From Candidatus Helarchaeota archaeon (GTDB lineage Archaea; Asgardarchaeota; Lokiarchaeia; Helarchaeales; RDOG01): a stretch of DNA of 64,000 nt. The position numbers and the translations under genes were made by a program. Positions 13,564 through 62,117 of the stretch are shown here, one piece after another. The first letter of the stretch is position 1; each line of letters starts with the position of its first letter. The stretch spans positions 320,001-384,000 of the forward strand of contig JAHPZH010000004.1 of the NCBI GenBank assembly GCA_019058315.1, in the 5' to 3' direction. Below the pieces are notes generated by a model. That model was not told where the DNA came from, searched no databases, and worked only from the letters and a program-made list of their open reading frames with translations.

Positions 13564-14337
13564 ATGACAGTTTCTTTAGAATATTATCTTTATTTTATAT
13601 CGAGTAAAATAGCTGGAACTACTTTTTTCAACCAGCCATTCGAAATTCTTATGCTTGTTATACTTCTTATAGCTGCAGCTTTTTTAGTTGGGATAATTTA
13701 TGAATTATATAAGAATTATAAAAGGACTGAATCAACTGAGACCTTATTATTTTTGATAGGAATGATCTCATTGATACCCGCTAATGTTCTGCTTGTACTT
13801 ATGGGTTTATGCTATTCAGTATATGGATTATTTGAACTCGGAAAACTTATAATAATTCTTACACAAATTCCTGCTCAATTCACGTATTTATGTGTGAATT
13901 TATTTGCAATTCGGATGACTTTTCCAAAAAAATATAAAATAGTTTTAATTATTTTAGTAAGTCTATCAGTTTTATTAATAGGAACTGTAACTTGGGCAAC
14001 TCTTCAAGGAACTCCATATTTTCATTATAATTTTGGGGTAGTTTATTCTACTGAGATTCAAATTATTAGATTTATTTGTCTTATACCTATTGCAGTAATT
14101 CCAATCTCAGTTTTCTATTATTATGCTGTAAAAATTAGAGAAGAAAATAGAGCTAGAAGCAACCGTTCCTTATGGTTAGGGACAGGAATTTTATTTTTTT
14201 GTGTTATAATTATTTTAACATCAGTTGCAACTATATTTAGATTATCTCAGATATTATATGTTCCCTCTGCAATTATTTTGTATGTTTGTTTTTCAATGCC
14301 AGAATGGTTTAAAACTAGAATTGGTTGGACTGATTAA
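13564..14337 (+). CDS. Stand-alone 7-TM receptor-like protein 1
   Basis: Seven hydrophobic helices; C-terminal YVCFSMPEWFKxRIGW shared with four paralogues. Confidence 0.85.
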   Translation: MTVSLEYYLYFISSKIAGTTFFNQPFEILMLVILLIAAAFLVGIIYELYKNYKRTESTETLLFLIGMISLIPANVLLVLMGLCYSVYGLFELGKLIIILTQIPAQFTYLCVNLFAIRMTFPKKYKIVLIILVSLSVLLIGTVTWATLQGTPYFHYNFGVVYSTEIQIIRFICLIPIAVIPISVFYYYAVKIREENRARSNRSLWLGTGILFFCVIIILTSVATIFRLSQILYVPSAIILYVCFSMPEWFKTRIGWTD

Positions 14338-14464
14338 AAGTCATACAAAATTTTCATATTATAAAAATTTTTAAATAAAGTCACAAAAAATTCACATATT
14401 ATTATTAATTTATTTAGATTCTTATTCAAAATAAAGTTTAAATAAAATATAATGAGGAAAGAAT

Positions 14465-15241
14465 ATGGCAGTATCATGGATTTATTATATTGAATATATT
14501 TCAACTACCTTATTTGGAGTTGATATATATAGACAACCAATGCAGGTCTTTTTGCTCTTGATTCTTCTTATAGCTGGCTGTTTTTTAATTGGTATAATAT
14601 ATGAACTAAATAAAGATTATAAAAAAAGGCAATCTACTGAGACCTTATTGTTTTTAATAGGGCTTATATTTTTAATTCCTGTCATTATTCTTGGCATTAT
14701 ATCAGGTTTGTGTTATTCAGTTCTTGGTTTACCTGATCTCGGAATACTTTTAACAATAATTGGAATGTTTCCAGTTCAAATTACGTATTTATGTGTTAAT
14801 TTATTCGCAATTCGGATGACATTTCCCAAGCGTTATAAAGTAATATTAGTTATTTTGGTATTATTATCTGTTATTACAGTAGGATCTCAATTATGGGCAA
14901 TAGATCAAGGTCCCCCTCACTTTGATATTATCAATTTTGGAATAATTTATTCTTTAGAAGTTCAAATAGTGAGATTCACCGCTCTTATTCTTGCAGCAGT
15001 ATTTCCAATTTCGGTTTTTTATTATTATGCTGCTAAAATTCGAGAGGAAAATAAACCTAGAAGTAATCTCTCATTATGGTTAGGAACCGGAATATTATGT
15101 TTCGTTTTAGCCTTTCAAATTCCTACAATTGCACCCATTTTTAGAATTATTCAAGCCTTTTATCTCCCAGCAGCCATTATTTTTTATGTTTGTTTTTCAA
15201 TGCCAGAATGGTTTAAGAAAAGAATTGGATGGGTCGACTAA
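14465..15241 (+). CDS. Stand-alone 7-TM receptor-like protein 2
   Basis: Tandem paralogue with the same motifs. Confidence 0.85.
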   Translation: MAVSWIYYIEYISTTLFGVDIYRQPMQVFLLLILLIAGCFLIGIIYELNKDYKKRQSTETLLFLIGLIFLIPVIILGIISGLCYSVLGLPDLGILLTIIGMFPVQITYLCVNLFAIRMTFPKRYKVILVILVLLSVITVGSQLWAIDQGPPHFDIINFGIIYSLEVQIVRFTALILAAVFPISVFYYYAAKIREENKPRSNLSLWLGTGILCFVLAFQIPTIAPIFRIIQAFYLPAAIIFYVCFSMPEWFKKRIGWVD

Positions 15242-15325
15242 TCTCGTTCAATTCTTTACATTAGATTTATAAATAATATCATATGCAAATATAAAATAAA
15301 TAATGTAAAACAAAGAGGTAACACT

Positions 15326-16102
15326 ATGCCAGTTACATGGGAATATTATTTTCAATTTGTATCAAATAAGTTGTTTGGGCTTTCAATTTTTGAACAACCA
15401 TTTGAACTTATTCTACTCGGCGCACTTCTTATAGCTTTGGTTTTTTTACTTGGTATAATTTATGAATTGTATAAAGATTATAAAAAAACAAAGACCATTG
15501 AGACTTTACTATTCCTATTGGGCATGATAACTTTAATTCCTGCGAATATTTTTGGTATCGTTTATAGTCTATGTTATTCGACTTTCGGGTTGCCTGAATT
15601 AGCAGAATTTTTAATAATTTTCAATTTATTTCCAATGCAATTTACTTATTTGTGTGTTAATTTATTTGCAATTCGGATGACTTTTCCAAAACGATACAAA
15701 ATAATTTTAGTGATTTTATTAATCTTATCAGTTATTCTGATAGGAACTATGACTTGGGCGATTTTAAATGGTTCGCCATATTTTAGTATTGTTAATTTTG
15801 CACCAGTCTATTCTCTTGATATTCAAATAATACGATTTATCTGTTTAATCCCTGTAGCAGTAATCCCTATTTCAGTTTTTTATTATTATGCTACAAAAGT
15901 TCGTGAAGAAAATAGAGCCACCAGTAATCGCTCCATATGGTTAGGGACGGGAATTTTATGCTTTGCATTAGCAGTAATTGTTACTTCAGTAGCAACTGAA
16001 TTTAGAATGTTTCAGATGTTATATGTTCCTGCGGCAATTATTTTTTACGTTTGTTTTTCAATGCCAGAGTGGTTTAAAAGAAGAATTGGTTGGACTGAAT
16101 AA
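15326..16102 (+). CDS. Stand-alone 7-TM receptor-like protein 3
   Basis: Tandem paralogue with the same motifs. Confidence 0.85.
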   Translation: MPVTWEYYFQFVSNKLFGLSIFEQPFELILLGALLIALVFLLGIIYELYKDYKKTKTIETLLFLLGMITLIPANIFGIVYSLCYSTFGLPELAEFLIIFNLFPMQFTYLCVNLFAIRMTFPKRYKIILVILLILSVILIGTMTWAILNGSPYFSIVNFAPVYSLDIQIIRFICLIPVAVIPISVFYYYATKVREENRATSNRSIWLGTGILCFALAVIVTSVATEFRMFQMLYVPAAIIFYVCFSMPEWFKRRIGWTE

Positions 16103-16218
16103 AAATCTCCATACTTTTTTTTTTACAACTATAAAAAAGATTAAATTTTTAAATATTAATTTATAAGATTTGAATATTCAATTCATAAAATCTAATAATA
16201 AATTTAAAGTGGTAAAAA

Positions 16219-16995
16219 ATGGCTGTATCTTGGGAATATTATGTTCAAATTGCATTGAATTCAATATTCGGACCTTCTCCTTCTTTTCAACTTTTAAGTT
16301 TAATTTCGTTGATAATATTTATTATAGCTGGAGCTTTCTCAATTGGTATAATTAATGAATTATATAAAAATTATAAACAAAGGGCAACAGTTGAAACATT
16401 ATTATTTTTGATAGGAATAATTACACTTATACCAAGTAATATTTTTTTGGTTCTTGTAAATTTATTTTATTGGATTCTTGTTTTACCTGAAATCGCAGAA
16501 ATTTGTATTTTAATTACACTACTTCTTACTCAAGTCACAGTTTTATGTATAGATTTATTCGCAATTCGAATGACCTTCCCAAAGAGATATAAAATAGTTT
16601 TGTTTGTTCTATTATTACTTGCCGTTATTAATATAACCACTCAATATTGGGCAACGCTTCAAGGACCCCCATATCTCATTTTCTATGAATATACTACAAT
16701 ATATTCTATAGATATCCAAATAATACGTTTCATTACTCTTGTGCCAGTAATGGTTATCCCTATTTCTGTTTTTTATTATTATGCTGTAAAAATTCGAGAA
16801 GAAAACCGAGCTCAAAGTAATCGCTCTTTATGGCTTGGAACAGGAATTTTATTTTTCGCTTTTGCCCTTCTTATGCTCTCGATTGCATCTGTGACTAGAA
16901 TATTCGTAATTTTATTTATTCCTTCTGCAATTATTTTTTATGTCTGTTTTTCTATGCCAGAGTGGTTTAAAAGAAGAATTGGTTGGACTGAATAA
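16219..16995 (+). CDS. Stand-alone 7-TM receptor-like protein 4
   Basis: Tandem paralogue with the same motifs. Confidence 0.85.
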   Translation: MAVSWEYYVQIALNSIFGPSPSFQLLSLISLIIFIIAGAFSIGIINELYKNYKQRATVETLLFLIGIITLIPSNIFLVLVNLFYWILVLPEIAEICILITLLLTQVTVLCIDLFAIRMTFPKRYKIVLFVLLLLAVINITTQYWATLQGPPYLIFYEYTTIYSIDIQIIRFITLVPVMVIPISVFYYYAVKIREENRAQSNRSLWLGTGILFFAFALLMLSIASVTRIFVILFIPSAIIFYVCFSMPEWFKRRIGWTE

Positions 16996-22999: not shown

Positions 23000-25816
23000 T
23001 TAGATTTTTTTTGTCTTTTCTTTTTTTATTTGAGAAACCTGCTTTTTTTCGATTTTTGCTGAAAGTTCCTTAATTGTTCTATTTTTATTGACGTTGGATC
23101 TTACTGCAATAATTGCTATGGCTGATATTGCCACAATGCCTGCTATTAATCCCAAACCTACTGGAGACAACAAGAAATCCATTATATTCGTGGTGCTTAT
23201 TGGAGGAATAAACGGAACGTTGTCATCTCCCGATCCTGGTCCTGGGTCATTAGGATCGGTGCCTGATAGAATCTCATCATAATCATTAACTCCATCTCCA
23301 TCTGTATCTTGTAAAAACGGATGTGTAAAATACACAAAAAGTTCATCGTAATCATTCAAACCCTCACCGTCAGTATCGCTATTTGTTGCATTAGTTAGGT
23401 AGAGAAAAAGTTCATCGTAATCATTTAATCCTTCGCCGTCCGTATCGTTATTTGTCGCATTTGTTTGATAAACCATTATTTCATCGTAATCATTCAAACT
23501 ATCAGCATCAGTATCGTTATTCGTCGCGTTTGTATGATACACCAGAATTTCATCGCCGTCAATCAACCCATCGCCTTCCGTGTCGTTATTTGTTGCATTA
23601 GTAATATAGACAAAAAGTTCATCATAATCATTTAAGTTATCGTCATCCGTATCGGAATCGGTTGGATCAGTAGGATAGATAAAAAGTTCAGCGGAATCAT
23701 TTAAGTTATCGCCATCCGTGTCGTTAGTTGCTGGATTAGTAAAATAGATAAAAACTTCATCGCCATCATATAAAGTATCATCATCCGTGTCATTATCATG
23801 TGGATCTGAATCATATTCCCATATTTCTTGTATGAATGTTAGACCATCCGAATCAAAATCATCCGAATTTCCCTCTCTAATTTTGATGCATCGCAAGCCT
23901 TGATCATAATCTCCAACGTATGCCACGTTTCCTGCGACAACTATGCCGAGTGCCTCTCCCGTGGTGTTATAAAAGTCGATTTCAGAGGGACTGGTAGGAT
24001 CGGATATGTTCACACACCGTAAACCCTGAAAATCATTCGTAACGTACGCTAGGTCTCCCGAGACAGCCACTTTAAATGCATTTCCCGGGGTGATGTAATA
24101 GCCTATCTCGGAGGGGGTGGTAGGGTCGCTTATGTCGACACACCGCAAACCTTGGGCAGCAGAGGCAACGTATGCTACGTCTCCCGAGATTGCCACTCCT
24201 ATTGCCATTCCTGGGGTGGGGTAATAACCTATCTCGGAGGGGTTTGTAGGGTCACTTATATTCACGCACCGTAAGCCTGAAGTAAAACCAGCAATGTATG
24301 CTACATCTCCCGAGATTGCCACATCACGTGCTTGTCCTGGAGTGTTATTATATCCTATTTCGGAGGGATTGGTCGGGTCACTTATATCAATGCACCGCAA
24401 ACCTTGCGTATTATCAGCAACGTATGCCACGTCTCCCGAGACCGCCACTCCAAATGCATATCCAGTGGTGTTGAACCAGCCTATTGAAGAGGGATTGGAG
24501 GGGTCGCTTATGTTCACGCACCGCAAACCTTGGGTATTATCAGCAACGTACGCCACGTCTCCCGCGATTGCTACATCACGTGCATATCCAGTGGTGTTGT
24601 AGGAGCCCATTAAAGAAGGGTTGGTAGGGTAACTTATATTCAGGCATCGTAAGCCTTCCCAACCATATGCAACGTAAGCCACATCTCCCGAGACTGCCAA
24701 TTCATTTGCTTCACCAGAGGTATTATAGTAACCTATTTCAGAGGGACTGGTAAAGTCGCTTATATCGATGCATCGCAAGCCTGCACCAGAAGCAGCAACG
24801 TATGCCACGTCTCCTGAGACAACCACTTTTGAAGCCCAATTCGGGATGTTACAAGAGCCTATTAAGGAAATACTGGTTGGATCGCTTATATCAAAGCAGT
24901 GCAAACCATCAGAACCATCTGCAACGTACGCCACGTTCCCCGAAATCGCCACTCCACCCGCCCCTCCTGGTGTGTCGTAAGAGTCTAATGAAGAGGGGCT
25001 AGTAGGGTCGCTTATATTGATGCAGCGAAAGCCGCCTGAATACCAATCGGCAATGTACGCCACATCTCCTGAGACTACTACATCGTATGAATTTCCTGGA
25101 GTGATTAAAAAACCTATTTCAGAGGGACCAGTAGGGTCGCTTATATCGATGCAGCGTAAGTTTGAACTGAAATCGGCGACGTATGCCACGTCTCCCGAGA
25201 CTTCTACGGCCCTCGCATTTGTCGTGTCATTAACTCCTATTGGAACGGGGTTGGTGGGGTCGCTAATATTAACGCACCGCAATCCTTGAGAACCGTCGGC
25301 AACGTATGCCACATCTCCCGAGATTGCCACATCCATTGCATTTCCTGGTGAATTATATCTTCCTATATAAGAGGGGTTGGTAGGGTCGCTTATGTCTACG
25401 CAATGCAAGCCTGATGCCGCATCAGCAACATATGCCACGTCTCCAGAGACTGCCACTCCTTGTGCTCCAAAAGTATTATCCAGTGTGTCGTACCAGCCTA
25501 TTGGATAGGGGTTGGTAGGATCACTTATGTTTACACACCGTAAACCTTGAATACCATCTGCAACGTATGCCACGTCTCCAGAGATTGCTATATCATTTGC
25601 AGATCCTGGCGTGTCATAATACCCGAGCTCCGCCTCTGCGGGTTGGAGCTCTAAAGGAATAGATGGAATGATTGTTTCTTGGTTAGAAGTATTACTAAAC
25701 CAACTCGGTGTTATCAAATCTGAATTAATAATAGAAGAAGTCGTTAACATGAAAAATATCGAAAATAAAGTTAATATTGTTAAGATCTGAAATTTCTTTC
25801 CTTTATTAAGGTTCAT
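23000..25816 (-). CDS. Cell-surface protein: 14 LVIVD repeats + Asp-rich TSP3-like Ca-binding repeats + C-terminal TM anchor
   Basis: Signal peptide; repeats GxYxTxGxAxxVAxSGDVAYVAxxxxGLRCxxISDPTxP; DTDxDxLxDxDE repeats; TM near the C-terminus. Confidence 0.9.
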   Translation of the reverse strand: MNLNKGKKFQILTILTLFSIFFMLTTSSIINSDLITPSWFSNTSNQETIIPSIPLELQPAEAELGYYDTPGSANDIAISGDVAYVADGIQGLRCVNISDPTNPYPIGWYDTLDNTFGAQGVAVSGDVAYVADAASGLHCVDISDPTNPSYIGRYNSPGNAMDVAISGDVAYVADGSQGLRCVNISDPTNPVPIGVNDTTNARAVEVSGDVAYVADFSSNLRCIDISDPTGPSEIGFLITPGNSYDVVVSGDVAYIADWYSGGFRCINISDPTSPSSLDSYDTPGGAGGVAISGNVAYVADGSDGLHCFDISDPTSISLIGSCNIPNWASKVVVSGDVAYVAASGAGLRCIDISDFTSPSEIGYYNTSGEANELAVSGDVAYVAYGWEGLRCLNISYPTNPSLMGSYNTTGYARDVAIAGDVAYVADNTQGLRCVNISDPSNPSSIGWFNTTGYAFGVAVSGDVAYVADNTQGLRCIDISDPTNPSEIGYNNTPGQARDVAISGDVAYIAGFTSGLRCVNISDPTNPSEIGYYPTPGMAIGVAISGDVAYVASAAQGLRCVDISDPTTPSEIGYYITPGNAFKVAVSGDLAYVTNDFQGLRCVNISDPTSPSEIDFYNTTGEALGIVVAGNVAYVGDYDQGLRCIKIREGNSDDFDSDGLTFIQEIWEYDSDPHDNDTDDDTLYDGDEVFIYFTNPATNDTDGDNLNDSAELFIYPTDPTDSDTDDDNLNDYDELFVYITNATNNDTEGDGLIDGDEILVYHTNATNNDTDADSLNDYDEIMVYQTNATNNDTDGEGLNDYDELFLYLTNATNSDTDGEGLNDYDELFVYFTHPFLQDTDGDGVNDYDEILSGTDPNDPGPGSGDDNVPFIPPISTTNIMDFLLSPVGLGLIAGIVAISAIAIIAVRSNVNKNRTIKELSAKIEKKQVSQIKKEKTKKI
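23240..23865 (-). repeat. About nine 23-aa (69-bp) Asp-rich coding repeats
   Basis: DTDxDxLNDYDELFxYxTNATNN units. Confidence 0.85.
23870..25630 (-). repeat. Fourteen ~126-bp coding repeats (LVIVD blades)
   Basis: Recurrent gtatgccacgtctcccgaga / gggtcgcttat motifs at ~126-bp spacing. Confidence 0.9.
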
Positions 25817-25970
25817 AAATTATCTCTCCTTAAAACACAATTAAAAAATTCATGATTTATATAATTATTTATAAAATTTATTTTGAAATTTAATTTTAAT
25901 TATTTTTTACTTAAAATAAAAGATAAATAATATTGATGGTGAATTTAAAAAAATTATTTATGAGTTTATT

Positions 25971-27560
25971 CTAACTTTGTCTAATATTAATTGATCGAAT
26001 AAAAGAGGGAATATCTCTTAAAAGTGCAACATCTGACATTATTCTTTTTCTGAATTTATCTAAATTAGAATTTCCCCATCTGTATTTAAATAAATAAATT
26101 CCTCCAAAAACAAATCTAGTAAGCAATTCTAACGATTTACTTTTCAACCATTCTTTTTTCATGATATGGAAGTTATATTCCCAGCATCTAGTAAAGAATT
26201 CCATCTGTATATCACTCATCTCATCAAAATTAGGTCTTCTTTCTTTCCTTAACATACATTCATGGAGATTAGCGAAGAGTAGAGGGACAAGAAAAACTTT
26301 ATAATTAAACATTTCATCAACAAGCTCAATGGACTTAATACAGTCTTCATCAGTTTCACCAGGCAGTCCAGTTATTAAAGTTGCCACAAGATTCCAATTA
26401 TTATCATTTAAAATACCGATCCCTTGTGTGACTACTTCCGGCCATTCTTTTGGGGTAAAAGGCAGCGGTTTACCACGCATATATTTTTCTATAAGTCGTG
26501 GACTGGCAGTTTCAATTCCTGTTTCTGCAGCTATAATTCCTTTTCCGCCATAGTGGAATCGGCAATAATCTTGCATTATATGTGAAATTTCAGATACCAT
26601 TTCTGGATCTGCCACTGCAGGGGCTAGACTTATATGTGCTGGTTGAACCCCTTTAACTCCTGGAACAGATGTAATCTCTTTAATTAGTTTATGGACTGCG
26701 AGTCCATTAGGAATAAATTTACCATCCATTTTACATCCATATAAAAATAAATCTTCAGTTGCCAAAGTAATTAAACCAGTTCCATTTCGAACATTGATCT
26801 CGACTTCTTTTTTAACCCTATCAATTGGCAAATCCCGTTTTTTCCGCATTGTTGGGGTGCAAAACTGGCAATTTCTTCCGCAACCTCTCGAAATCTCAAC
26901 TGAGCCATGAATTGCACTATTTCTGATCATAGGGATTTCTTCAATTTTTGGGGATTTTCGAACTTGGACTATTGGAGGAAGTTGTTCTCCTTTAACAGCC
27001 TTTTCAAACAATTTTGGAGCAATTACATCCCCTTCACCAATAACTACACAATCTATTCCAAGCTTTTTCATCGCTTTCTTTCCAACTTGCCACGCACCTG
27101 GTCCTCCTAAAATAACCTTAGGTTTATACTTCTTAAAACATTTATTTTTAAAAATTTTTAGAAAATAATATTGTGTTGATGACATTGATCCAAAAGCTAA
27201 AGAAGAATAAGTAAAACTTACATATGCTAAACCAAGAGGGTCCATGGAAGATATTCCAATAACTCGGGTTTCAAGTCCGACAAATTTCTTTAAATGTGCT
27301 GGAGTAGTCACGACTATATCATTTGGGTCGAAACCATATTTGATTAATGCAGCTTCTATTTTTCTCAAACCATAAGGTGCCAATTTTGCTGTATAATCTT
27401 CATGTACTGCAGTAGTAGGATAGAAGAAACTTTTCCAAGACCAAATTGGAATTCTATGTGAGAAGCTAGCCGAAAATGCAACAAAAGGATTATCATTAAA
27501 ATCACTCATTTCAACTTCAGAACTGGTTAAAACAATCTTTTTTCCCCTAATCTTTGCCAT
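25971..27560 (-). CDS. Radical SAM enzyme, GDGT ring synthase (Grs/Gms)-like, paralogue of 17657..19183
   Basis: APYGLRKIEAALI, GGPGAWQ, EISRGCGRNCQFC, GIETASPRL, LITGLPGETDED. Confidence 0.82.
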   Translation of the reverse strand: MAKIRGKKIVLTSSEVEMSDFNDNPFVAFSASFSHRIPIWSWKSFFYPTTAVHEDYTAKLAPYGLRKIEAALIKYGFDPNDIVVTTPAHLKKFVGLETRVIGISSMDPLGLAYVSFTYSSLAFGSMSSTQYYFLKIFKNKCFKKYKPKVILGGPGAWQVGKKAMKKLGIDCVVIGEGDVIAPKLFEKAVKGEQLPPIVQVRKSPKIEEIPMIRNSAIHGSVEISRGCGRNCQFCTPTMRKKRDLPIDRVKKEVEINVRNGTGLITLATEDLFLYGCKMDGKFIPNGLAVHKLIKEITSVPGVKGVQPAHISLAPAVADPEMVSEISHIMQDYCRFHYGGKGIIAAETGIETASPRLIEKYMRGKPLPFTPKEWPEVVTQGIGILNDNNWNLVATLITGLPGETDEDCIKSIELVDEMFNYKVFLVPLLFANLHECMLRKERRPNFDEMSDIQMEFFTRCWEYNFHIMKKEWLKSKSLELLTRFVFGGIYLFKYRWGNSNLDKFRKRIMSDVALLRDIPSFIRSINIRQS

Positions 27561-39395: not shown

Positions 39396-39911
39396 TTGAC
39401 TGAGACACATTACGTATATAAGGTGGTAATAATAGGGGATTTCGCAGTGGGAAAAACCAGTCTTATAAAAGAATATATGGAGAAAACGTTCCAATACGAT
39501 TATAAACCCACTATAGGTGCTAATATAGCTAAGAAAGATTTTGAGATTCCTAAAAGTAAAGCTGTGGCATCAGTCAATTTTTGGGATATTGCAGGACAAA
39601 AAATGTTCGCTACTCTTCACCGTCCATTTTTTGAAGGTGCAAATGGAGTCTTAATAGTCTATGATGTCACCCGACCAGATTCTTTTAATAATCTAGGTAA
39701 TTGGTTTAATGATTTTAAGAAAATCGTAAAATCTGATATTCCAGGAGTTATTGTTGGGAATAAAATTGATTTGAAACGGGAAGTAAAAACCAAACAAGGA
39801 AAAAAATATGCAGATTCCATAGGATTTTATTTTATTGAGACATCTGCAAAGGAAAATAAAAATGTAGAAGACGCGTTTCGATATATTTTATCAAATATAT
39901 TACCAAAATAA
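39396..39911 (+). CDS. Rab-like small GTPase 1
   Basis: GDFAVGKT, PTIG, WDIAGQ, GNKID, ETSAK; no C-terminal prenylation Cys. Confidence 0.95.
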   Translation: MTETHYVYKVVIIGDFAVGKTSLIKEYMEKTFQYDYKPTIGANIAKKDFEIPKSKAVASVNFWDIAGQKMFATLHRPFFEGANGVLIVYDVTRPDSFNNLGNWFNDFKKIVKSDIPGVIVGNKIDLKREVKTKQGKKYADSIGFYFIETSAKENKNVEDAFRYILSNILPK

Positions 39912-39929: not shown

Positions 39930-40445
39930 ATGAGTTATAAAAAATTTACATTTAAAATAACCCTTATCGGGGATGGAGCAGTTGGCAAAACTAGCTTAAT
40001 AACCGCCTACATAGAAAAAAGGTTTAAATTCGATTATTTGCCTACCTTTGGCGCTAATATTATGAAAAAAGACTTTGCAATTCCTGAAAAAAATGCGGTA
40101 GCTAGTATAAATTTCTGGGATATTGCAGGGCAACCTTCTTTTAAATCTCTTCATAAAACATTTTTTGGAGGATCAAACGGAACTCTCCTTGTCTTTGATG
40201 TAACACAACCACATACGTTTGAGAGTTTGGCAGAGTGGCATAAAAGATTTAAAAAATTTGGATCTAAAAAAGCTCCTGGAGTAGTTGTAGCAAATAAAAT
40301 TGATTTAAAGCGAAAAATAAAAACCGATCAAGCGAAAGCTTTTGCAGATAAAATTGGTTATTACTATATCGAAACCTCTGCACTCCAAAATCGCAATGTC
40401 ACGGAGGCATTCCAATATTTATTAGATAATTTATTACCAAAATAA
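39930..40445 (+). CDS. Rab-like small GTPase 2 (tandem paralogue)
   Basis: GDGAVGKT, PTFG, WDIAGQ, ANKID, ETSAL. Confidence 0.95.
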   Translation: MSYKKFTFKITLIGDGAVGKTSLITAYIEKRFKFDYLPTFGANIMKKDFAIPEKNAVASINFWDIAGQPSFKSLHKTFFGGSNGTLLVFDVTQPHTFESLAEWHKRFKKFGSKKAPGVVVANKIDLKRKIKTDQAKAFADKIGYYYIETSALQNRNVTEAFQYLLDNLLPK

Positions 40446-54235: not shown

Positions 54236-55396
54236 ATGAGAAAAGTTGCAATAGTAGCTGCTGGAGAATCCAAATTTGGAGATCGAGTTGGTAAAGAATA
54301 TGAAGAACTCATATCCGAAGCATATCTTGAAGCAATGTCAAGTGTGAATAATATAGAACCTAAGGATATCCAAGAAGCTTTTTGGGGATCGTTGGCCTTT
54401 GGTGGATCTCAACTAGGAAATATGAGTGCGCTTCTAGTTGATGGTATAAATATCATGGGTATACCTACTTCTCGGATTGAAAATGCTTGTGCGAGTAGTG
54501 GTTACGCCTTGAGATATGCTTTTTTTTCTATCGCTGCGGGAATAAATGATATTGTTATTGCTGGAGGGGCAGAAAAGATGCAAGATATTTCGCGAGCTAC
54601 AAGATTATATTGGTTCGGAGTGGGTGGAGATATTAAATGGGAACGCTTATCTGGAATGACATTTCCAGGGAATTATGCACTTATGGCTTCCAGACATATG
54701 CACGAATTTGGAACTAAAAAAGAAGATTTAGCACAAGTTGCTGTAAAAAACCACAAATTTGCATCAAATAATCCTAAAGCACAATTTCAAAAGGCTATAA
54801 CTTTAGAACAAGCGATGAAAGCTCCAATGGTAGCATATCCTCTCAATATTTTTGATTGTTGTCCTTTAACAGATGGTGCATCTTGTGTTATTCTATGTCC
54901 TGCTGAAGATGCTAAAAAATACACAGATACTCCAATTGAAATTATTGGTGCAGGGGCCGGAAGCGATCATTTAGCTTTATATCAAAGAGAATCATTAACT
55001 AGAATAGAAGGGGCAGTTAAAGCTAGTAAAATGGCTTTTGATATGGCAAAAATGACTCCAAATGATATAAATGTCGCTGAAGTGCATGATTGTTTTACAA
55101 TAGCTGAGATTCTAGCTTACGAAGATGTAGGTTTTTGTAAAAAAGGAGAAGGCGGTAAATTTATTTCTGAAGGTTTATCTGATATTGGTGGAAAAGTCCC
55201 AATTAACTCAGGAGGAGGATTGAAAGCAAAAGGTCATCCAATTGGAGCCACAGGTACTGCTCAAGTTTATGAAATATTTCATCAATTAAGAGGAGAACAT
55301 ATAAATCAAGTTGATGGTGCAGAAACTGCCCTAACTCACAATGTTGGGGGAACAGGGTCATCTTGTACTGTTCATATTTTTAAAAGGATGAGGTGA
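54236..55396 (+). CDS. Archaeal-type (SCP2-like) thiolase / acetyl-CoA acetyltransferase
   Basis: ENACASSG, AEVHDCFTIAE, GHPIGATG, HNVGG. Confidence 0.93.
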   Translation: MRKVAIVAAGESKFGDRVGKEYEELISEAYLEAMSSVNNIEPKDIQEAFWGSLAFGGSQLGNMSALLVDGINIMGIPTSRIENACASSGYALRYAFFSIAAGINDIVIAGGAEKMQDISRATRLYWFGVGGDIKWERLSGMTFPGNYALMASRHMHEFGTKKEDLAQVAVKNHKFASNNPKAQFQKAITLEQAMKAPMVAYPLNIFDCCPLTDGASCVILCPAEDAKKYTDTPIEIIGAGAGSDHLALYQRESLTRIEGAVKASKMAFDMAKMTPNDINVAEVHDCFTIAEILAYEDVGFCKKGEGGKFISEGLSDIGGKVPINSGGGLKAKGHPIGATGTAQVYEIFHQLRGEHINQVDGAETALTHNVGGTGSSCTVHIFKRMR

Positions 55397-55400
55397 AATT

Positions 55401-56429
55401 TTGAAATCAAAACTTAAAATTCTTGGATATGGAAGTTATATACCACGGTTTCGAATTAAAAAAGAAGAGTACGTTAAGACATGGGGAAGTTTTCAAGGTA
55501 AAATTCAAGAAAAATCTGTAATTGGTTATGATGAGGATACCTTGACCATGGCTGTTGAAGCTGGAAAAAATGCTTTAAAAAATTCAAAGGTAAAAAGAGA
55601 AGACATAAAAGTGATTACAGTAGGATCAGGATCTCCTCCTTACGCACTTCGTTCAATGTCCTCAGAAGTCGCCATGGCGATCGGTATACCTTTGGATATT
55701 GTTTTATTAGATTTTAAGGAATCTGAAAAGGCAGGAACAACTGGTCTATTAACTAGTATCGATATTTTATCTAATCGAGGAGGAACTGGTTTAGTAATTG
55801 GAAGTGATTCTCCTCTTGCAAAACCGAATGATGAGGTTGAACATACATTTGGGGCAGGGGCGGCTGCTTTAATCGTTGGAAAAAATGGTGGAATTGCTGA
55901 TATAGAGGGATATAGTTCTAACAATGTATCATTTATGGCTGATCGTTTTAGAAAAGATGGGGATACGACAATTCAAGATTTATCAATTGCATCTTATAAA
56001 AAATATGCCTATCAGAATTCAATATCTGGAGCGGTTACTAAATTAATGGATGAACTTGGACTAAAATCTGATGATTTTAATCACGCTTTTATTCAAGGGC
56101 ACGATAGTCGAGAACCTACTCGCGTTATACCGAAATTAATTGACAAAAAGAAGATCTATACAGAAACATTAAATGTTTTAGGTGATACTGGTGCTGCATC
56201 AGCATTGATTGGAATGATTGGAATATTAAGCAAAGTATCGAAGCCTAATGATAGAATCTTATGTGTATCGTACGGCTCTGGAGCAGGAAGCGAGGCTTTC
56301 AGTATATTGGTTAAAGATAAACAAGTTAATGATCCAGAAACACCTGATTTTGAGATGTATCTGAACAATAAAAATTATTTGGATTATAGTCAGTATATTA
56401 AATTTCGAGAATTAATAGATTTGGAGTAG
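55401..56429 (+). CDS. HMG-CoA synthase-like protein lacking the catalytic triad
   Basis: GYGSYIPRFRI, DEDTLTMAVEA, GAGAAA, SYGSGAGS; Glu/Cys/His motifs read GSGSPPY, SEKAGT, IQGHD. Confidence 0.85.
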   Translation: MKSKLKILGYGSYIPRFRIKKEEYVKTWGSFQGKIQEKSVIGYDEDTLTMAVEAGKNALKNSKVKREDIKVITVGSGSPPYALRSMSSEVAMAIGIPLDIVLLDFKESEKAGTTGLLTSIDILSNRGGTGLVIGSDSPLAKPNDEVEHTFGAGAAALIVGKNGGIADIEGYSSNNVSFMADRFRKDGDTTIQDLSIASYKKYAYQNSISGAVTKLMDELGLKSDDFNHAFIQGHDSREPTRVIPKLIDKKKIYTETLNVLGDTGAASALIGMIGILSKVSKPNDRILCVSYGSGAGSEAFSILVKDKQVNDPETPDFEMYLNNKNYLDYSQYIKFRELIDLE

Positions 56430-56861
56430 GTGAATTATATGGCACATGTTTCAGTTCCAAAATATTGGAAAATTTTACCCCAAAAATATAGATTAGTTGC
56501 AGGTAAGTGTAAAGAATGTGGACACTTAAATTTTCCACCTAGACCAATATGTGAAAAATGTAGCAAAACCGATACTCAAGAAGATGTTGAATTAAAAGGT
56601 CGTGGAAAAGTTTATACGTTTACAATTATTGGACGTGGAGCAGCCCCTCCTGAGTTTGCAAAGATGCAGAAAAAATGCGGACCTTATGCTATTGCAGTAG
56701 TGGAATTGGAAGAAGGTCAAAAAATCAATGTCCAATTAACAGATTGTGATCCGTTTGAAATTAAAATTGGTATGCCAGTAACTGCAGTTTTTCGACAAAT
56801 TTACGAACAAGAATCGGTAATTCGTTATGGACTTAAATTCAGACCCGCTTTAAAAAAATAA
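56430..56861 (+). CDS. DUF35 Zn-ribbon/OB-fold protein
   Basis: CKECGHLNFPPRPICEKC, GKVYTFTII, AVVELEEG, YGLKFRP; probable start ATG at 56439. Confidence 0.93.
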   Translation: MNYMAHVSVPKYWKILPQKYRLVAGKCKECGHLNFPPRPICEKCSKTDTQEDVELKGRGKVYTFTIIGRGAAPPEFAKMQKKCGPYAIAVVELEEGQKINVQLTDCDPFEIKIGMPVTAVFRQIYEQESVIRYGLKFRPALKK

Positions 56862-57071: not shown

Positions 57072-57611
57072 ACGGTTAAAATATTAATTACAAAAGATTC
57101 TTGGCTTAGTGAATTTAAAAAAGATAAAAATTATGGTGCTGGAAAAGGATGGAAAGAAAATTTTAAAGAAGGACGTCCTGCCTTGTTTCTCGGGTTCGGT
57201 GGTAGAGATAAAAAGATAGTTGTACTTGGCTTTGACACAGATGAGTTGAAGGGAAAAGATATTAAAAAGGCAACATTGAAATTAGCTGTTGTTTATTCTG
57301 GTTCTGCCAAGGAAATGGTACACGAAGCAAAAGCTATATTGGAAGATTGGGACCAAGATAAGGTGACTTGGAACAATTTAAAAAAGTTTGGGCCAGTAAT
57401 ATCTACCGCCACGATTAAGGGTTCTTGGAACTATAACGCTAAACCTAAATGGATTGAATGGGACATTACTTCAATCGTCAAAGATTGTGTTGCTGGAAAA
57501 GCCTTTGGTATTGCTATAGATACTCAAGGAAGTGCAGGAGTTGATAGACAAGTCGAGCCTAGTGAGTCTGAAAATGCCGACCTACGTCCCTATATCGAAG
57601 TGGAGCTATAA
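57072..57611 (+). CDS. DNRLRE/CBM96-like domain protein (start extended to putative ACG)
   Basis: In-frame upstream KDSWLSE..DKNYG, then IKKATLKL, W...VTWNN, EWDITSIV, SE....RPYIEV. Confidence 0.75.
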   Translation, partial: TVKILITKDSWLSEFKKDKNYGAGKGWKENFKEGRPALFLGFGGRDKKIVVLGFDTDELKGKDIKKATLKLAVVYSGSAKEMVHEAKAILEDWDQDKVTWNNLKKFGPVISTATIKGSWNYNAKPKWIEWDITSIVKDCVAGKAFGIAIDTQGSAGVDRQVEPSESENADLRPYIEVEL

Positions 57612-57751
57612 AAAAAAATAATTTTTATTATTTTTTGATGATTATAATAAAAAATGAATAGAGAATCCAAAAAGTGATTGAATTAATGTTTCAATTTCAA
57701 AAATTAAAAAAATCTAGATTATAGAAATTTTAACTAATAAAGAGGATAATA

Positions 57752-58885
57752 TTGAATCAGTTGATATCATTTCTAGTAATTTTAATAATGATTTCAATAT
57801 TATCCGTATTTTTAAAATATTCAATCGGTGTTTTAAAAAATAGAACTCAAATAAATCAATTATTTATCCTTTCTTTCATTTTTTTCGGATTTGGAATACT
57901 CTCTGACCTCATAAGAATTTTAGAAATTATATTTTTGGGAACTATCAATGAAAATATAGATAAAATTGTCTTTATCTTGAAAGTATTTCTTTATTTCTTT
58001 GGAACTTCCACTATTATTTATATTATGCAAATATTAAGCAGACAAAGTGGTCATCATACGAAAAAAGATACTGCAATAAGTACATCCTATTATATTTTAA
58101 ATCCATTTATCTCAATTTTAAATAGTTATACATTTATTAAAACAAATATTAACGAATATGGATTTTATTTTTTTCAAATCAATCCTTTTGTATTTTTATT
58201 AACTTTAGCAATATTATCTCCTCTTTTTGCTTATGTTTTTTTTAAAGTTAAAGTTCTTAAAAGCGAGATTAAAAGTGAACTAACGAGAAAACAAGTAGAT
58301 GTCTGTATAACTGCTTTTATATTAATTGAAATTAATTGTACAACAATTCTTATATTTTATTCATTGTTTAATAATTCGATTTATATCCTAATTACAAATC
58401 TTTTGATATTATTAACGTCTACTTATGTTTTTACTTTTTCATTATTTCGAAAATATCCAGATTTTTTAAATGCTGTAAGTACTTATTATTCTATCAGATC
58501 TATCTATATAATAGGAGGTAAAGGTGTTATTATTTATGAGTATGATTTTCAGAAAGAATCTTTAAAAGATCCTCTATCTACAAGAGAGTTATTATTAGGA
58601 GGTTTTTTATACATAATAGATAGTGGTTTAGTTACATTATTCGACGCAAAAGAGGATATTAAGTCAATAAATATTGGAAATATGAATTTAATATTTACTC
58701 ATGGAAAATATGTTTTTGGATTATTATTAACTACAGATTATACTTTTGTTATGGCTCGTAAATTAAATAATTTTGTTGAAAAATTTGAAAATAATTATAA
58801 GAATATACTTGAAAATTGGTCAGGTGAAATTACAGAATATAATTCAGAAATTATTCAAAATTGGATAGATGAATTTTTTAGATAA
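57752..58885 (+). CDS. 7-TM + C-terminal longin-domain protein 1
   Basis: Seven hydrophobic helices, then IRSIYIIGGKGVIIYEYDF...LLGGFLYII...FVEKFENNY...NWSG. Confidence 0.8.
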   Translation: MNQLISFLVILIMISILSVFLKYSIGVLKNRTQINQLFILSFIFFGFGILSDLIRILEIIFLGTINENIDKIVFILKVFLYFFGTSTIIYIMQILSRQSGHHTKKDTAISTSYYILNPFISILNSYTFIKTNINEYGFYFFQINPFVFLLTLAILSPLFAYVFFKVKVLKSEIKSELTRKQVDVCITAFILIEINCTTILIFYSLFNNSIYILITNLLILLTSTYVFTFSLFRKYPDFLNAVSTYYSIRSIYIIGGKGVIIYEYDFQKESLKDPLSTRELLLGGFLYIIDSGLVTLFDAKEDIKSINIGNMNLIFTHGKYVFGLLLTTDYTFVMARKLNNFVEKFENNYKNILENWSGEITEYNSEIIQNWIDEFFR

Positions 58886-58900
58886 ATTTAGAATCTATAA

Positions 58901-60049
58901 ATGGGTAAGGATTTAATGATAAGATATATAGTTGAAATATTAGTTCATGTAGTTATAATATTCTATTTAATCTCTTTATTACGAGTAATTATAGAATATT
59001 TAAAAAATAGAACAAACATTAATCAAACATTTGTAATAATGTTCTCAAGTATCGGATATGGAGTATTATACGATTGTATTCGAATTCTAAACTTTCTTGT
59101 TTCTGGTTATTTTAATGTATATTTCGATAAAATCAGCTTTCTTTTTAAGTTACCTACAGTTCTTATAGCGTATTCTTTTTTAGCACGAATATTGTTTAAA
59201 TTTATGGAAGTAAGCGGTTATAACATAAAAAAATATATTCCTATTAGGATATTTTTCCTTGGAATGTTCATTATATTATCATTTTTAAATTTATTTACAT
59301 ATTATCAATCTTATTTTTATGATCTATTTGGATTTTATATGTATATGGTTAATCCAATACTTCGCATTATTATATATTTCTTGTATACTCCTTTTTTTCT
59401 AATTTTAGGAATTAAGGGTATGAAGCTCTTATCCGAAATAGAAAATAAGGTTATAAAAAGGAGAATAACTTGTATGTTCACCTTTTTTGGAATTCTAATC
59501 ATGGGACGATTATACAATTTGGGATATTTTTCTCCATTCTCTAATTATATGTCCACATACATAATAGACTTTTTAATAATATCAATAAGCTTATTTTGCC
59601 TGTGTAGTTTTGCTATTAAATACCCTGAACTGCTTCAATTAATTAGTACATATTTTTCTGTAAAATCTGTTTATATAATTCAAAAAAATGGCACTTTAAT
59701 ATTTGATCATGATTTTAAGGAAGAAATTTCTCAGCACCCAATCTCTCCAAAACAAATCCTATTAGGAGGATTTATTTATGCAGTTAACAAGGGCTTAAAA
59801 TCATTTTTTGATCTAACAGGAGAAATTAATGTTATAAATTTTGGAAAATTAATTGCTTTAATTAAACATGGCAAATATATATTCGTTATATTGTCCGCTT
59901 CAGAAAATACTCCTACAATACAACAAAAATTAAACTTATTAATTGAAAAATTTGAGACATTATATGAATATGAACTTGAAAACTGGACAGGACCTTCCAT
60001 ATTTAAATCTGAAGATGTTAAAAAATTGATTTATGAGAGTTTCAGATAG
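58901..60049 (+). CDS. 7-TM + C-terminal longin-domain protein 2 (tandem paralogue)
   Basis: Same architecture: VKSVYIIQKNGTLIFDHDF...LLGGFIYAV...LIEKFETLY...NWTG. Confidence 0.8.
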   Translation: MGKDLMIRYIVEILVHVVIIFYLISLLRVIIEYLKNRTNINQTFVIMFSSIGYGVLYDCIRILNFLVSGYFNVYFDKISFLFKLPTVLIAYSFLARILFKFMEVSGYNIKKYIPIRIFFLGMFIILSFLNLFTYYQSYFYDLFGFYMYMVNPILRIIIYFLYTPFFLILGIKGMKLLSEIENKVIKRRITCMFTFFGILIMGRLYNLGYFSPFSNYMSTYIIDFLIISISLFCLCSFAIKYPELLQLISTYFSVKSVYIIQKNGTLIFDHDFKEEISQHPISPKQILLGGFIYAVNKGLKSFFDLTGEINVINFGKLIALIKHGKYIFVILSASENTPTIQQKLNLLIEKFETLYEYELENWTGPSIFKSEDVKKLIYESFR

Positions 60050-60161: not shown

Positions 60162-62117
60162 ATGCCTAAAACAAATTATATAATTTGCACACATAACGAC
60201 TTAGATGGGTTCTGTTGTGGTGCAATTTTATTAAATGAATTTCCCTATGCTACAATTTCCTTTGGAACTTCAAAATCTATACATAGAAAGATGTATTATA
60301 TTAGGAAATATTTGAGTGATAACTCAAAAAATTATCTATTTATTTGTGATATCAGTCCTAAAGCTGGTAATATCAGTAAAATCAATAAAATCATATCAGA
60401 TTTTAAAACAAATTTTAATTTGCAGGTCATTTGGTTTGATCATCATCAATGGCCAAATAATGCTAAAATTTTGAAAGGTATAGAAATAATCCATGATGAT
60501 AAGAAAAAATCTGCTGCCAATCTGGTTCAAAAATATGTGGATCAAACTACATTTAGCTATTTTTCAAAATTAGCTGAGTGGTTACCTGTAGAAGATGCAG
60601 AATATTGGAAGACAGTTATTCGAAATGCGGGTAAAATTCCGCTGTCTGATGAAAGGTTGAAAAGACTTCTTCATTATTTTAGTAAATTAAAGCAGTCGGA
60701 GCTTACAGAAGAATTCTATAAAAGTTCACAAAAGCTAACATCTAAAGAACTAGATAGCATTAGCTTGTTTGATACCATTGACGGCAAAAGATTCGCAATT
60801 CTTGATTTACGTAAAATATTTCATGATATTGATTATTACGCAGAAAAAAAGCGTATAACAAAAACGTATTCATGTGATTTTGTCTGTATCATTAAAAGAA
60901 AGAACGGAATTTCAATATATAATGAAAATGAAGTGGATCTCTCATTTTTAAAGGAGTTGGGAGTTGAAGGACATGTCAAAACAGGTGCGATTGTCATTCC
61001 AAGACCTTACATCAATTGGCCCAATTCTAAATTTCATCGTCCTTTAATTGAAGAGGAACTTATTGATATACTTATAGAAAAAAAGATAAAGAATTTAGAC
61101 TATGAAGGACAGCAACGCACTTCACATTATCATAAAGATGAAATTACCCAATTAAAAGAATTGCCAAGCATGGATTCAGACTTATTTAATCTACTCAATG
61201 AAAATAATATCAAAAATGTCTCTGATTTATCTAATTGTGAGACTTATTTACTGGAAGACCTTGACATTTCCAAGGATCTGGCTAAATGCTTAATTCGAGA
61301 GGCAGAAGCATCATTGGAAAGAAACCGATCTTGGTCTACTGACGGATTTGGTAGACCAAATTTGAAATTTAAAGAAAATCAAAAATATTTTGATATTTTA
61401 TGGGAATTTAATAAAGGTTGGACCATGACCAGCGGTTGTCAAAGTTTAGATGCATTTTTATTGAGTGATGGATTTAAAACTAAGGATATTTATGAATTCT
61501 ATGGGTTATCTAAAGTAGGTAAGACTTATTTGATACATCAACTTCTCTGCAGAGGCGTCTTGCCTCTTGAGCAGGGAGGTCTCGGAGGTATGGCTATATA
61601 TTTCGATACAGAACATAATTTTAATAAAGATATTATCCGAGCAATAGCACCTAGATTCAATCTAGAACCGGAATATGTTTTTCAAAACATGGCGAGACGT
61701 GAAACTGTTTCTACGAATGACCTGCTTTCGGGAGTTGAAAGAGAACTTCCTAAATTTATAAAAAGATATGAGGTAAGATTAATTATTGTTGATAATCTAA
61801 TTGAACATTTTTTAACCGAATACCCAAATCCAGATAATCCAGAACGTGGAAATAAAATAGCAAGAGTATTTGATACTTTAAAAGCTATTTCGCGTAATTT
61901 TAATGTGGTTGTAATTTATACTAATCATATTGTGAGTCTTCAAACGGATTATCAAAGAATAATGGATATTGAACATACAGGAGGAGTGTTACTTAACCCT
62001 AATGTTCGAATAAAAATCCAATTTGTTTATGATGAAATAGATATAAGGGAATTTTATATCTCAAATGAAAAACCTTGTGTCTTATCTATTTCGAGTGATG
62101 GATTTCATGATGTATGA
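60162..62117 (+). CDS. DHH phosphoesterase fused to HhH + RadA/Rad51-like ATPase
   Basis: THNDLDG, CDIS, FDHH, EGH; GCQSLDAFL, EFYGLSKVGKT, LPLEQGGLGG.AIYFDTE, LIIVDNL. Confidence 0.85.
   Translation: MPKTNYIICTHNDLDGFCCGAILLNEFPYATISFGTSKSIHRKMYYIRKYLSDNSKNYLFICDISPKAGNISKINKIISDFKTNFNLQVIWFDHHQWPNNAKILKGIEIIHDDKKKSAANLVQKYVDQTTFSYFSKLAEWLPVEDAEYWKTVIRNAGKIPLSDERLKRLLHYFSKLKQSELTEEFYKSSQKLTSKELDSISLFDTIDGKRFAILDLRKIFHDIDYYAEKKRITKTYSCDFVCIIKRKNGISIYNENEVDLSFLKELGVEGHVKTGAIVIPRPYINWPNSKFHRPLIEEELIDILIEKKIKNLDYEGQQRTSHYHKDEITQLKELPSMDSDLFNLLNENNIKNVSDLSNCETYLLEDLDISKDLAKCLIREAEASLERNRSWSTDGFGRPNLKFKENQKYFDILWEFNKGWTMTSGCQSLDAFLLSDGFKTKDIYEFYGLSKVGKTYLIHQLLCRGVLPLEQGGLGGMAIYFDTEHNFNKDIIRAIAPRFNLEPEYVFQNMARRETVSTNDLLSGVERELPKFIKRYEVRLIIVDNLIEHFLTEYPNPDNPERGNKIARVFDTLKAISRNFNVVVIYTNHIVSLQTDYQRIMDIEHTGGVLLNPNVRIKIQFVYDEIDIREFYISNEKPCVLSISSDGFHDV

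Follow-up and report, generated by a model that had tools for sequence, protein, structure and literature searches.

Two adjacent open reading frames (ORFs) in a 64,000-nucleotide stretch of the genome of a Candidatus Helarchaeota archaeon, hereafter called the window, encode members of a large and fast-diversifying family of receptor-like proteins of Asgard archaea, each of which joins a seven-transmembrane (7TM) half to a C-terminal longin domain. An earlier note, made from the bare sequence of this stretch, had described the pair (here called A and B) as neighbouring paralogues that both combine seven transmembrane (TM) helices, a linker motif and a longin-type domain, and this arrangement is confirmed on the plus strand (Table 1). 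The two paralogues align end to end with few gaps at 33% identity (E 5e-62) and share the linker KYP(D/E)xLxx(V/I)STY(Y/F)S, which reads KYPDFLNAVSTYYS in A and KYPELLQLISTYFS in B. Because orthologues are found in other metagenome-assembled genomes (MAGs), at 66% identity for A as well as 84% and 68% for B, we regard both as real conserved genes and not as chance ORFs, and the 15-nt gap between them makes co-transcription probable. The assembly of this genome comprises 12 contigs with 5.79 Mb; the GC content is around 30% across the window, and its nearest relatives in the databases are proteins from MAGs that bear the labels Hodarchaeota, Helarchaeota or Promethearchaeota, which identifies the host as an Asgard archaeon. 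All sequencing runs listed as carrying the sequence are metagenomic DNA from sediment or soil, none of them RNA, and sediment is the probable origin of the assembly.

For a census of the family, a profile of the longin half was run over six-frame ORFs of the whole genome, and we classed as 7TM-longin those products of 320 to 400 residues that contain at least 5 crudely predicted TM segments followed by a C-terminal longin domain. The profile detected 114 ORFs, 41 of which are 7TM-longin genes at 31 loci that include arrays of two (A and B among them), three and six genes. The other longin ORFs include 31 long ones (at least 600 residues, with the longin domain at the C-terminus), 22 short stand-alone ones and 3 fusions of a longin domain to a Ras GTPase. 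A profile of the TM half finds only the five closest paralogues; the median pairwise identity among the 41 genes is 14.9% in the TM half versus 22.2% in the longin half, which is the more similar of the two in 93% of pairs. Beyond this genome, an exhaustive profile search returned 358 relatives, mostly of 340 to 390 residues and 53 of them with E below 1e-30. 7TM-longin genes were found at 18 loci in 17 other genomes that represent at least 9 other GTDB families of the phylum, and three ESM-Atlas clusters (79 to 313 members, almost wholly archaeal and mostly from Promethearchaeota) match B by shape. As far as seen, the family is confined to Asgard archaea, and all 7TM-longin members examined are annotated as "hypothetical protein".

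A fast-changing TM half, a conserved half on the predicted cytoplasmic side, many copies and tandem arrays together form the pattern expected of sensory receptors. We give about an even chance to a reading in which a ligand or the state of the membrane would be sensed by the receptor-like 7TM bundle, whose conformational change would then reach the longin domain via the KYP..STY(F/Y) helix. Either by itself or paired in an A/B dimer, the longin domain would recruit or regulate a partner at the membrane, be it a small Rab-like GTPase or another longin/roadblock protein.

The same longin type is found on other architectures in this genome, whose contigs C3, C5 and C11 we cite in G000 coordinates. 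Proteins of around 550 residues (e.g., G000:C5:824007-825629; loci L074-L079) from several genera carry it at the C-terminus behind 11 to 12 TM segments with a weak MFS_1 signal, an architecture that is possibly transceptor-like; they had been considered as 7TM-longin-GTPase fusions, which was rejected on finding this composition. Around 31 ORFs of 600 to 2600 residues also end in this longin type (e.g., C3:1294819-1298187 and C11:691678-695091), and relatives of these long proteins are soluble with weak TPR/MIT signals. In most genomes across the phylum, of which 253 of 301 match at E 1e-10, a form of around 750 residues matches best.

The membrane half and its fold

The structure of B was modelled with AlphaFold2 from a 40-sequence alignment and compared with known structures by Foldseek and VIA-align in an all-against-representatives search of the PDB. 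The model (predicted local distance difference test score, pLDDT, 88.2; predicted template modelling score, pTM, 0.83) contains seven long helices (residues 2-36, 39-68, 73-104, 110-133, 152-179, 183-206 and 216-240), an outward-facing beta-hairpin that separates TM4 from TM5, and a short helix that follows TM7. A probably has the same fold, judging from its gap-poor full-length alignment to B. Lysine and arginine residues cluster in the three intracellular loops (ICL1, ICL2 and ICL3, after TM1, TM3 and TM5) and behind TM7; in the three outer loops there are none in B and a single one in A. By the positive-inside rule, the N-terminus should therefore lie outside and the C-terminus inside, which would place the longin domain in the cytoplasm.

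[quoted passage not shown] Since Z-scores of 12 to 15 only just exceed what helical bundles reach by their general arrangement, we describe the modelled 7TM half as having a GPCR-like fold and withhold any claim of homology to GPCRs. GPCR Pfam families matched neither A, B nor 40 family members, even at E up to 1-10, and both the DRY motif after TM3 and the NPxxY motif of TM7 are absent from the sequences of A and B. A microbial rhodopsin or other retinal protein is ruled out by the lack of a lysine in TM7 of A and B, where the sole nearby lysines (K234 in A and K240 in B) belong to the KYP motif on the cytoplasmic side; rhodopsin models gave no match in the Pfam scan.

A bundle of this kind might merely anchor the longin domain, which would then be a static platform where GTPases or other longin/roadblock proteins dock, a constitutive tether without signal gating that could be likened to LAMTOR1-Ragulator or SR-beta/SR-alpha. 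Membrane-tethered longin/roadblock platforms are well known (PMC10933270), and the presence of the same longin domain on 11-12-TM proteins and on long soluble TPR/MIT proteins gives it the look of a portable adaptor. However, one or two helices would suffice for tethering, whereas a full GPCR-like bundle appears to have been kept here, complete with the outward hairpin and with polar, buried residues that are conserved within the A/B subfamily (D58/R61 in TM2 and D76/K83 in TM3) and thus argue against an inert anchor. Since 41 copies with a fast-diverging TM half are also the pattern expected of sensors, we consider a mere tether unlikely, though not far-fetched.

The fold would also be compatible with a transporter or transceptor whose 7TM half moves a small solute, as OST-alpha does, with the longin domain either regulating this transport or reporting on it. 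The structural matches do include OST-alpha (9unv_A, Z 12.7), which is a transporter of GPCR-like fold, and the parallel architecture of MFS-like 11-12-TM proteins with the same longin domain recalls nutrient transceptors. OST-alpha is, however, the sole transporter among matches otherwise filled by GPCRs, transporter Pfam families gave no match among the family members scanned, and 41 divergent copies would be unusual for one transporter type. Solute transport is therefore a distinctly improbable function in our view.

The earlier note had also suspected a link between the pair and the stand-alone 7TM proteins that are encoded in tandem near the beginning of the window (Table 1). The model of these proteins (pLDDT 80) has seven helices with a TM4/TM5 hairpin and a short terminal helix, as in B, and its top PDB matches (8jmt_A, Z 15.2; 8ikj_R, Z 14.6) are the same top two as those of B. 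The link thus holds for the predicted GPCR-like fold but not for the sequence, because hhalign detected no relation between the 7TM-longin family and the stand-alone proteins (probability 0.8%). Pfam gave no match for the four stand-alone proteins; more paralogues of them lie on contigs C3 and C5, and tandem orthologues occur in Helarchaeota and Hodarchaeota MAGs. Their model resembles Atlas clusters of the HisKA_7TM, 7TM-HisKA and 7TM-GGDEF types (TM-scores of 0.62-0.69), and language-model features of B residues 1-245 score 0.84-0.86 to clusters partly labelled HisKA_7TM, which we treat as a lead only.

Bacteria are known to possess 7TM sensors of GPCR-like type that carry fused outputs (PMC10760455, PMC13581589), including E. 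coli DgcT/CdgI with its GPCR-like fold (PMC10760455). Like A and B, prokaryotic 7TM sensors such as the HisKA_7TM kinases and 7TM-GGDEF proteins (DgcT/CdgI being an example) combine an N-terminal 7TM part with a cytoplasmic output in a single chain. The output of A and B is a longin domain instead of a kinase or cyclase, however, and PF16927 (HisKA_7TM) matched neither any of 40 family members nor, in a whole-genome scan, the 7TM-longin genes. The simplest reading of the models may be that Asgard archaea reuse a general prokaryotic 7TM sensor fold, with a longin output replacing the kinase or cyclase.

The longin half, pairing and small GTPases

That the C-terminal domain is a longin domain, as the earlier note had proposed, is borne out at the level of fold in the B model. 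Behind the additional linker helix (residues 244-253), residues 254-381 follow the longin order of strands and helices, b-b-a-b-b-b-a-a (DSSP: E254-261, E266-271, H283-303, E311-314, E317-323, E327-333, H338-360 and H370-381). The best solved match of residues 253-382 is found in human CPLANE, whose chain C (7q3d_C) begins with a longin domain that superimposes with Z 12.4 and a root-mean-square deviation of 2.9 Å over 117 residues, and the longin subunits of TRAPP (7e2c_E, 3cue_A and 3cue_C) match with TM-scores by target of 0.56-0.60 and Foldseek E around 2e-3. The roadblock protein MglB matches as well (TM-scores of 0.46-0.57), as do ESM-Atlas clusters labelled Fuz_longin_1. At the level of sequence, Sybindin/TRAPPC4 (PF04099) matches B below threshold (E 4.5e-4; 18.3 bits over the full protein, 20.7 with the domain by itself, against a gathering threshold of 25), spanning profile positions 2-43 only and equally weakly in 5 of 40 family members, and a sequence-profile search of the PDB gave nothing significant (Trs23 at E 0.4). 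Longin domains are established as guanine nucleotide exchange factor (GEF), GTPase-activating protein (GAP) or platform modules of GTPases (PMC10933270, PMC11188069). What the earlier note broadly had in mind, a receptor-like module in one chain with a domain of a GTPase-regulator type, is supported.

In a quick maximum-likelihood tree with branch support from the Shimodaira-Hasegawa-like approximate likelihood ratio test (SH-aLRT) only, A and B fall into an A clade (support 97) and a B clade (support 99). They are not mutual nearest paralogues; the closest paralogue of B lies at C5:425650-426768 (41% identity) and that of A at C5:320202-321341 (38%). The A-then-B order is also found at loci L061 and L064, with gaps of 30 to 33 nt. 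In GCA_048940975.1 (L061), the A orthologue is preceded by the same thiolase, HMG-CoA-synthase-like and DUF35 genes as in the window and followed after 30 nt by the start of a B orthologue that is cut by the contig end, and in GCA_013375355.1, 33 nt separate an A-clade gene from the B-clade gene behind it. With its presence in three genomes, the tandem must be older than these three. A heterodimer of A and B, as envisaged in the earlier note, would fit this recurrent order, but most family members are single or in arrays of 3 to 6 and not in A/B pairs.

Several observations connect the family with small GTPases. The profile of its longin half also detects the three longin-Ras-GTPase fusions mentioned above, and 5 of this genome's 31 loci have a Ras-like GTPase no more than 250 bp away, compared to a background of 3.3% at other genes (binomial test, p=0.003). 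The genome encodes roughly 54 stand-alone small GTPases. A four-member GTPase subfamily (C11:127048, C11:130125, C5:1291696 and C5:1292456; 59-72% mutual identity, at most 42% to the rest) adjoins 7TM-longin genes in all four cases (at G000:C11:127048-132965 and G000:C5:1284350-1292965), with one GTPase followed by a same-strand 7TM-longin pair and two that converge on an array of six genes. The A-clade/B-clade pair of GCA_013375355.1 comes directly behind a Rab-like GTPase of 167 residues. Its orthologue in the present genome (G000:C5:426972-427469; 92% identical, with the next paralogue at 48%) sits 201 bp upstream of the closest paralogue of B, and GCA_048940975.1 has an 87% orthologue in the same place upstream of that paralogue. 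This GTPase is conserved at 87-92% versus 38-67% for the neighbouring receptor-like genes. Judged from this genomic context, a cognate GTPase would most likely belong to the orthogroup of G000:C5:426972-427469 and not to the GTPases of the window. The earlier note had pointed to the latter, a plus-strand tandem of Ras/Rab-family GTPases (39396-39911 and 39930-40445; 58% mutual identity, at most 43% to the other 112 GTPase matches), but these form a different subfamily that has no 7TM-longin neighbour anywhere in the genome, and the proposed coupling to them is unsupported.

The evidence from gene neighbourhoods also leaves room for longin domains that work without any GTPase, mediating oligomerisation or binding coat, adaptor or SNARE-like partners (zeta-COP, sigma-adaptin and longin SNAREs), in which case A and B might be cargo receptors or assembly factors. 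Some longin domains do function without GTPases (PMC10933270), zeta-COP longin structures (2hf6 and 5mc7) are among the Foldseek matches, and most 7TM-longin loci have no adjacent GTPase. The closest structures, however, are the GTPase-regulating longin domains of CPLANE and TRAPP, and both the longin-GTPase fusions found by the same profile and the enriched adjacency in this genome speak against such a role, which we consider rather unlikely.

Other results weigh against a sensor that acts on small GTPases through its longin domain. Besides the modest Z-scores of the 7TM half, there is no GTPase within 17 kb of A and B and none within about 4 kb of the 18 7TM-longin loci of 17 other genomes, and a comparison of the 41 paralogues shows no conserved residue of catalytic type in their longin domains. 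The four loci of 54-72% relatives of the candidate GTPase likewise have no 7TM-longin neighbour, so that the linkage may be conserved simply because closely related genomes share their gene order. A complex prediction from three chains (A and B at full length and the candidate Rab-like GTPase P0155, each with its own alignment) counts neither way, with scores (interaction prediction score from aligned errors, ipSAE) of 0.11 and 0.05 for interfaces other than A-B. Taken as a reasoned inference, coupling of the family to GTPases appears about evenly balanced. The far more specific picture of a ligand-gated receptor with GPCR fold whose fused longin domain, as an A/B heterodimer, would be a direct GEF (or GAP) for Rab-like GTPases seems unlikely to us. 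The GEF activity that the earlier note had considered possible is unsupported, as nothing separates a GEF from a GAP or a passive platform.

Gene context, known systems and meaning of the family

Table 1. Features of the A/B pair and of the stand-alone 7TM proteins in the window.
Feature	Position	Strand	Basis
Four tandem stand-alone 7TM proteins, 257-258 residues, 59-68% identical	13564-16995	+	AlphaFold2 model
Shine-Dalgarno-like AGAGG	57741..57745	+	6 nt 5' of the TTG start of ORF A; read from sequence
ORF A, 377 residues, 7TM-longin, A clade	57752..58885	+	Orthologue P0006 (66%); clade SH-aLRT 97
ORF A residues 1-232, predicted seven-TM bundle, N-terminus outside	57752..58447	+	Hydropathy, lysine/arginine distribution, alignment to modelled B
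ORF A residues 233-377, RKYPDFLNAVSTYYS linker helix and predicted longin domain	58448..58882	+	Longin profile match at 237-377 (E 3e-52); alignment to B
A-B spacer, 15 nt	58886..58900	+	Sequence
ORF B, 382 residues, 7TM-longin, B clade	58901..60049	+	Orthologues P0004 (84%) and P0005 (68%); clade SH-aLRT 99
ORF B residues 1-240, predicted GPCR-like 7TM bundle with beta-hairpin 135-149	58901..59620	+	AlphaFold2 model, Foldseek, VIA-align
ORF B residues 241-382, predicted linker helix 244-253 and longin domain 254-381	59621..60046	+	AlphaFold2 model, structure matches

Directly upstream of the pair, the plus strand carries thiolase, HMG-CoA-synthase-like and DUF35/OB-fold genes (54236-56861), and the DUF35 gene is separated from ORF A by an ORF of 142 residues (57183-57611, +) with a match to the carbohydrate-binding module CBM96 (E 8e-14); an OsmC gene takes the place of this ORF in GCA_048940975.1. 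Downstream follows an ORF of 651 residues (60162-62117, +) that combines an N-terminal DHH phosphoesterase with a Rad51/RadA ATPase domain. Elsewhere in the window, the GC content rises to 0.44 at 24001-26000 (compared to around 0.30 in the rest) within a minus-strand ORF of 938 residues (23000-25816), and an Rfam scan of the window from 20 to 30 kb, around this GC-rich part, gave no match.

Compared with eukaryotic GPCRs, the likeness of the predicted 7TM-longin proteins consists of the seven-helix fold, the N-out/C-in topology, the TM4-TM5 hairpin and the short helix after TM7, and extends to membership in a large, fast-diverging family that is partly arranged in tandem arrays. In contrast to GPCRs, they lack sequence homology as well as DRY and NPxxY, the presumed transducer-binding module is covalently fused, and any partner would be a monomeric Rab-like GTPase and not a heterotrimeric G protein. 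The longin fold and its order of elements are common to A and B and to the TRAPP core (Bet5/Trs23), Mon1-Ccz1 and Fuzzy-Inturned (CPLANE). The tri-longin Rab GEFs (Mon1-Ccz1, Fuzzy-Inturned and HPS1-HPS4), however, have three longin domains in tandem, whereas a single one of around 130 residues is fused to the 7TM bundle here.

In Ragulator-Rag with SLC38A9 and in the SRX domain of SR-alpha with SR-beta, a longin/roadblock platform at the membrane positions or regulates a small GTPase, and in the case of Ragulator-Rag and SLC38A9 this membrane platform works together with a multi-pass sensor. Sensor, anchor and platform are separate polypeptides in the Ragulator and SR systems, while the 7TM-longin proteins unite them in one chain. 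Longin SNAREs (Ykt6, Sec22 and VAMP7) resemble A and B in that they combine a longin domain with a membrane anchor on the same chain, but in reverse order, with an N-terminal longin domain, a single C-terminal anchor and a SNARE motif that has no counterpart in A and B.

Full-text searches of the literature on Asgard longin, 7TM and GPCR proteins turned up no account of a 7TM-longin fusion. The longin/roadblock passages of the survey of Asgard clusters of orthologous genes (asCOGs) report 130 roadblock/longin asCOGs and fusions of longin to two-component domains and, in these passages, mention no 7TM fusions. In a 2026 preprint, the Asgard-eukaryote families include "7TM proteins" as well as a "class C GPCR" cluster, with no connection drawn to longin domains. 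The family thus apparently is undescribed, and what appears to be new is a longin output on a known sensor fold or, seen from the other side, a membrane input for a known regulator fold.

Asgard genomes encode many small GTPases and longin/roadblock proteins, few of which are linked in operons. The 7TM-longin family would supply an input layer for this GTPase network and would give a testable model of how membrane receptors may have been coupled to GTPases before eukaryotes arose. According to the models, the GPCR-like fold is present in abundance, and diversifying, among the archaea most closely related to eukaryotes. If receptor and GEF or GAP were indeed united on one chain, these proteins would be a prokaryotic counterpart, and possibly a forerunner, of the eukaryotic logic by which a receptor activates a G protein, with dozens of such receptors per genome.

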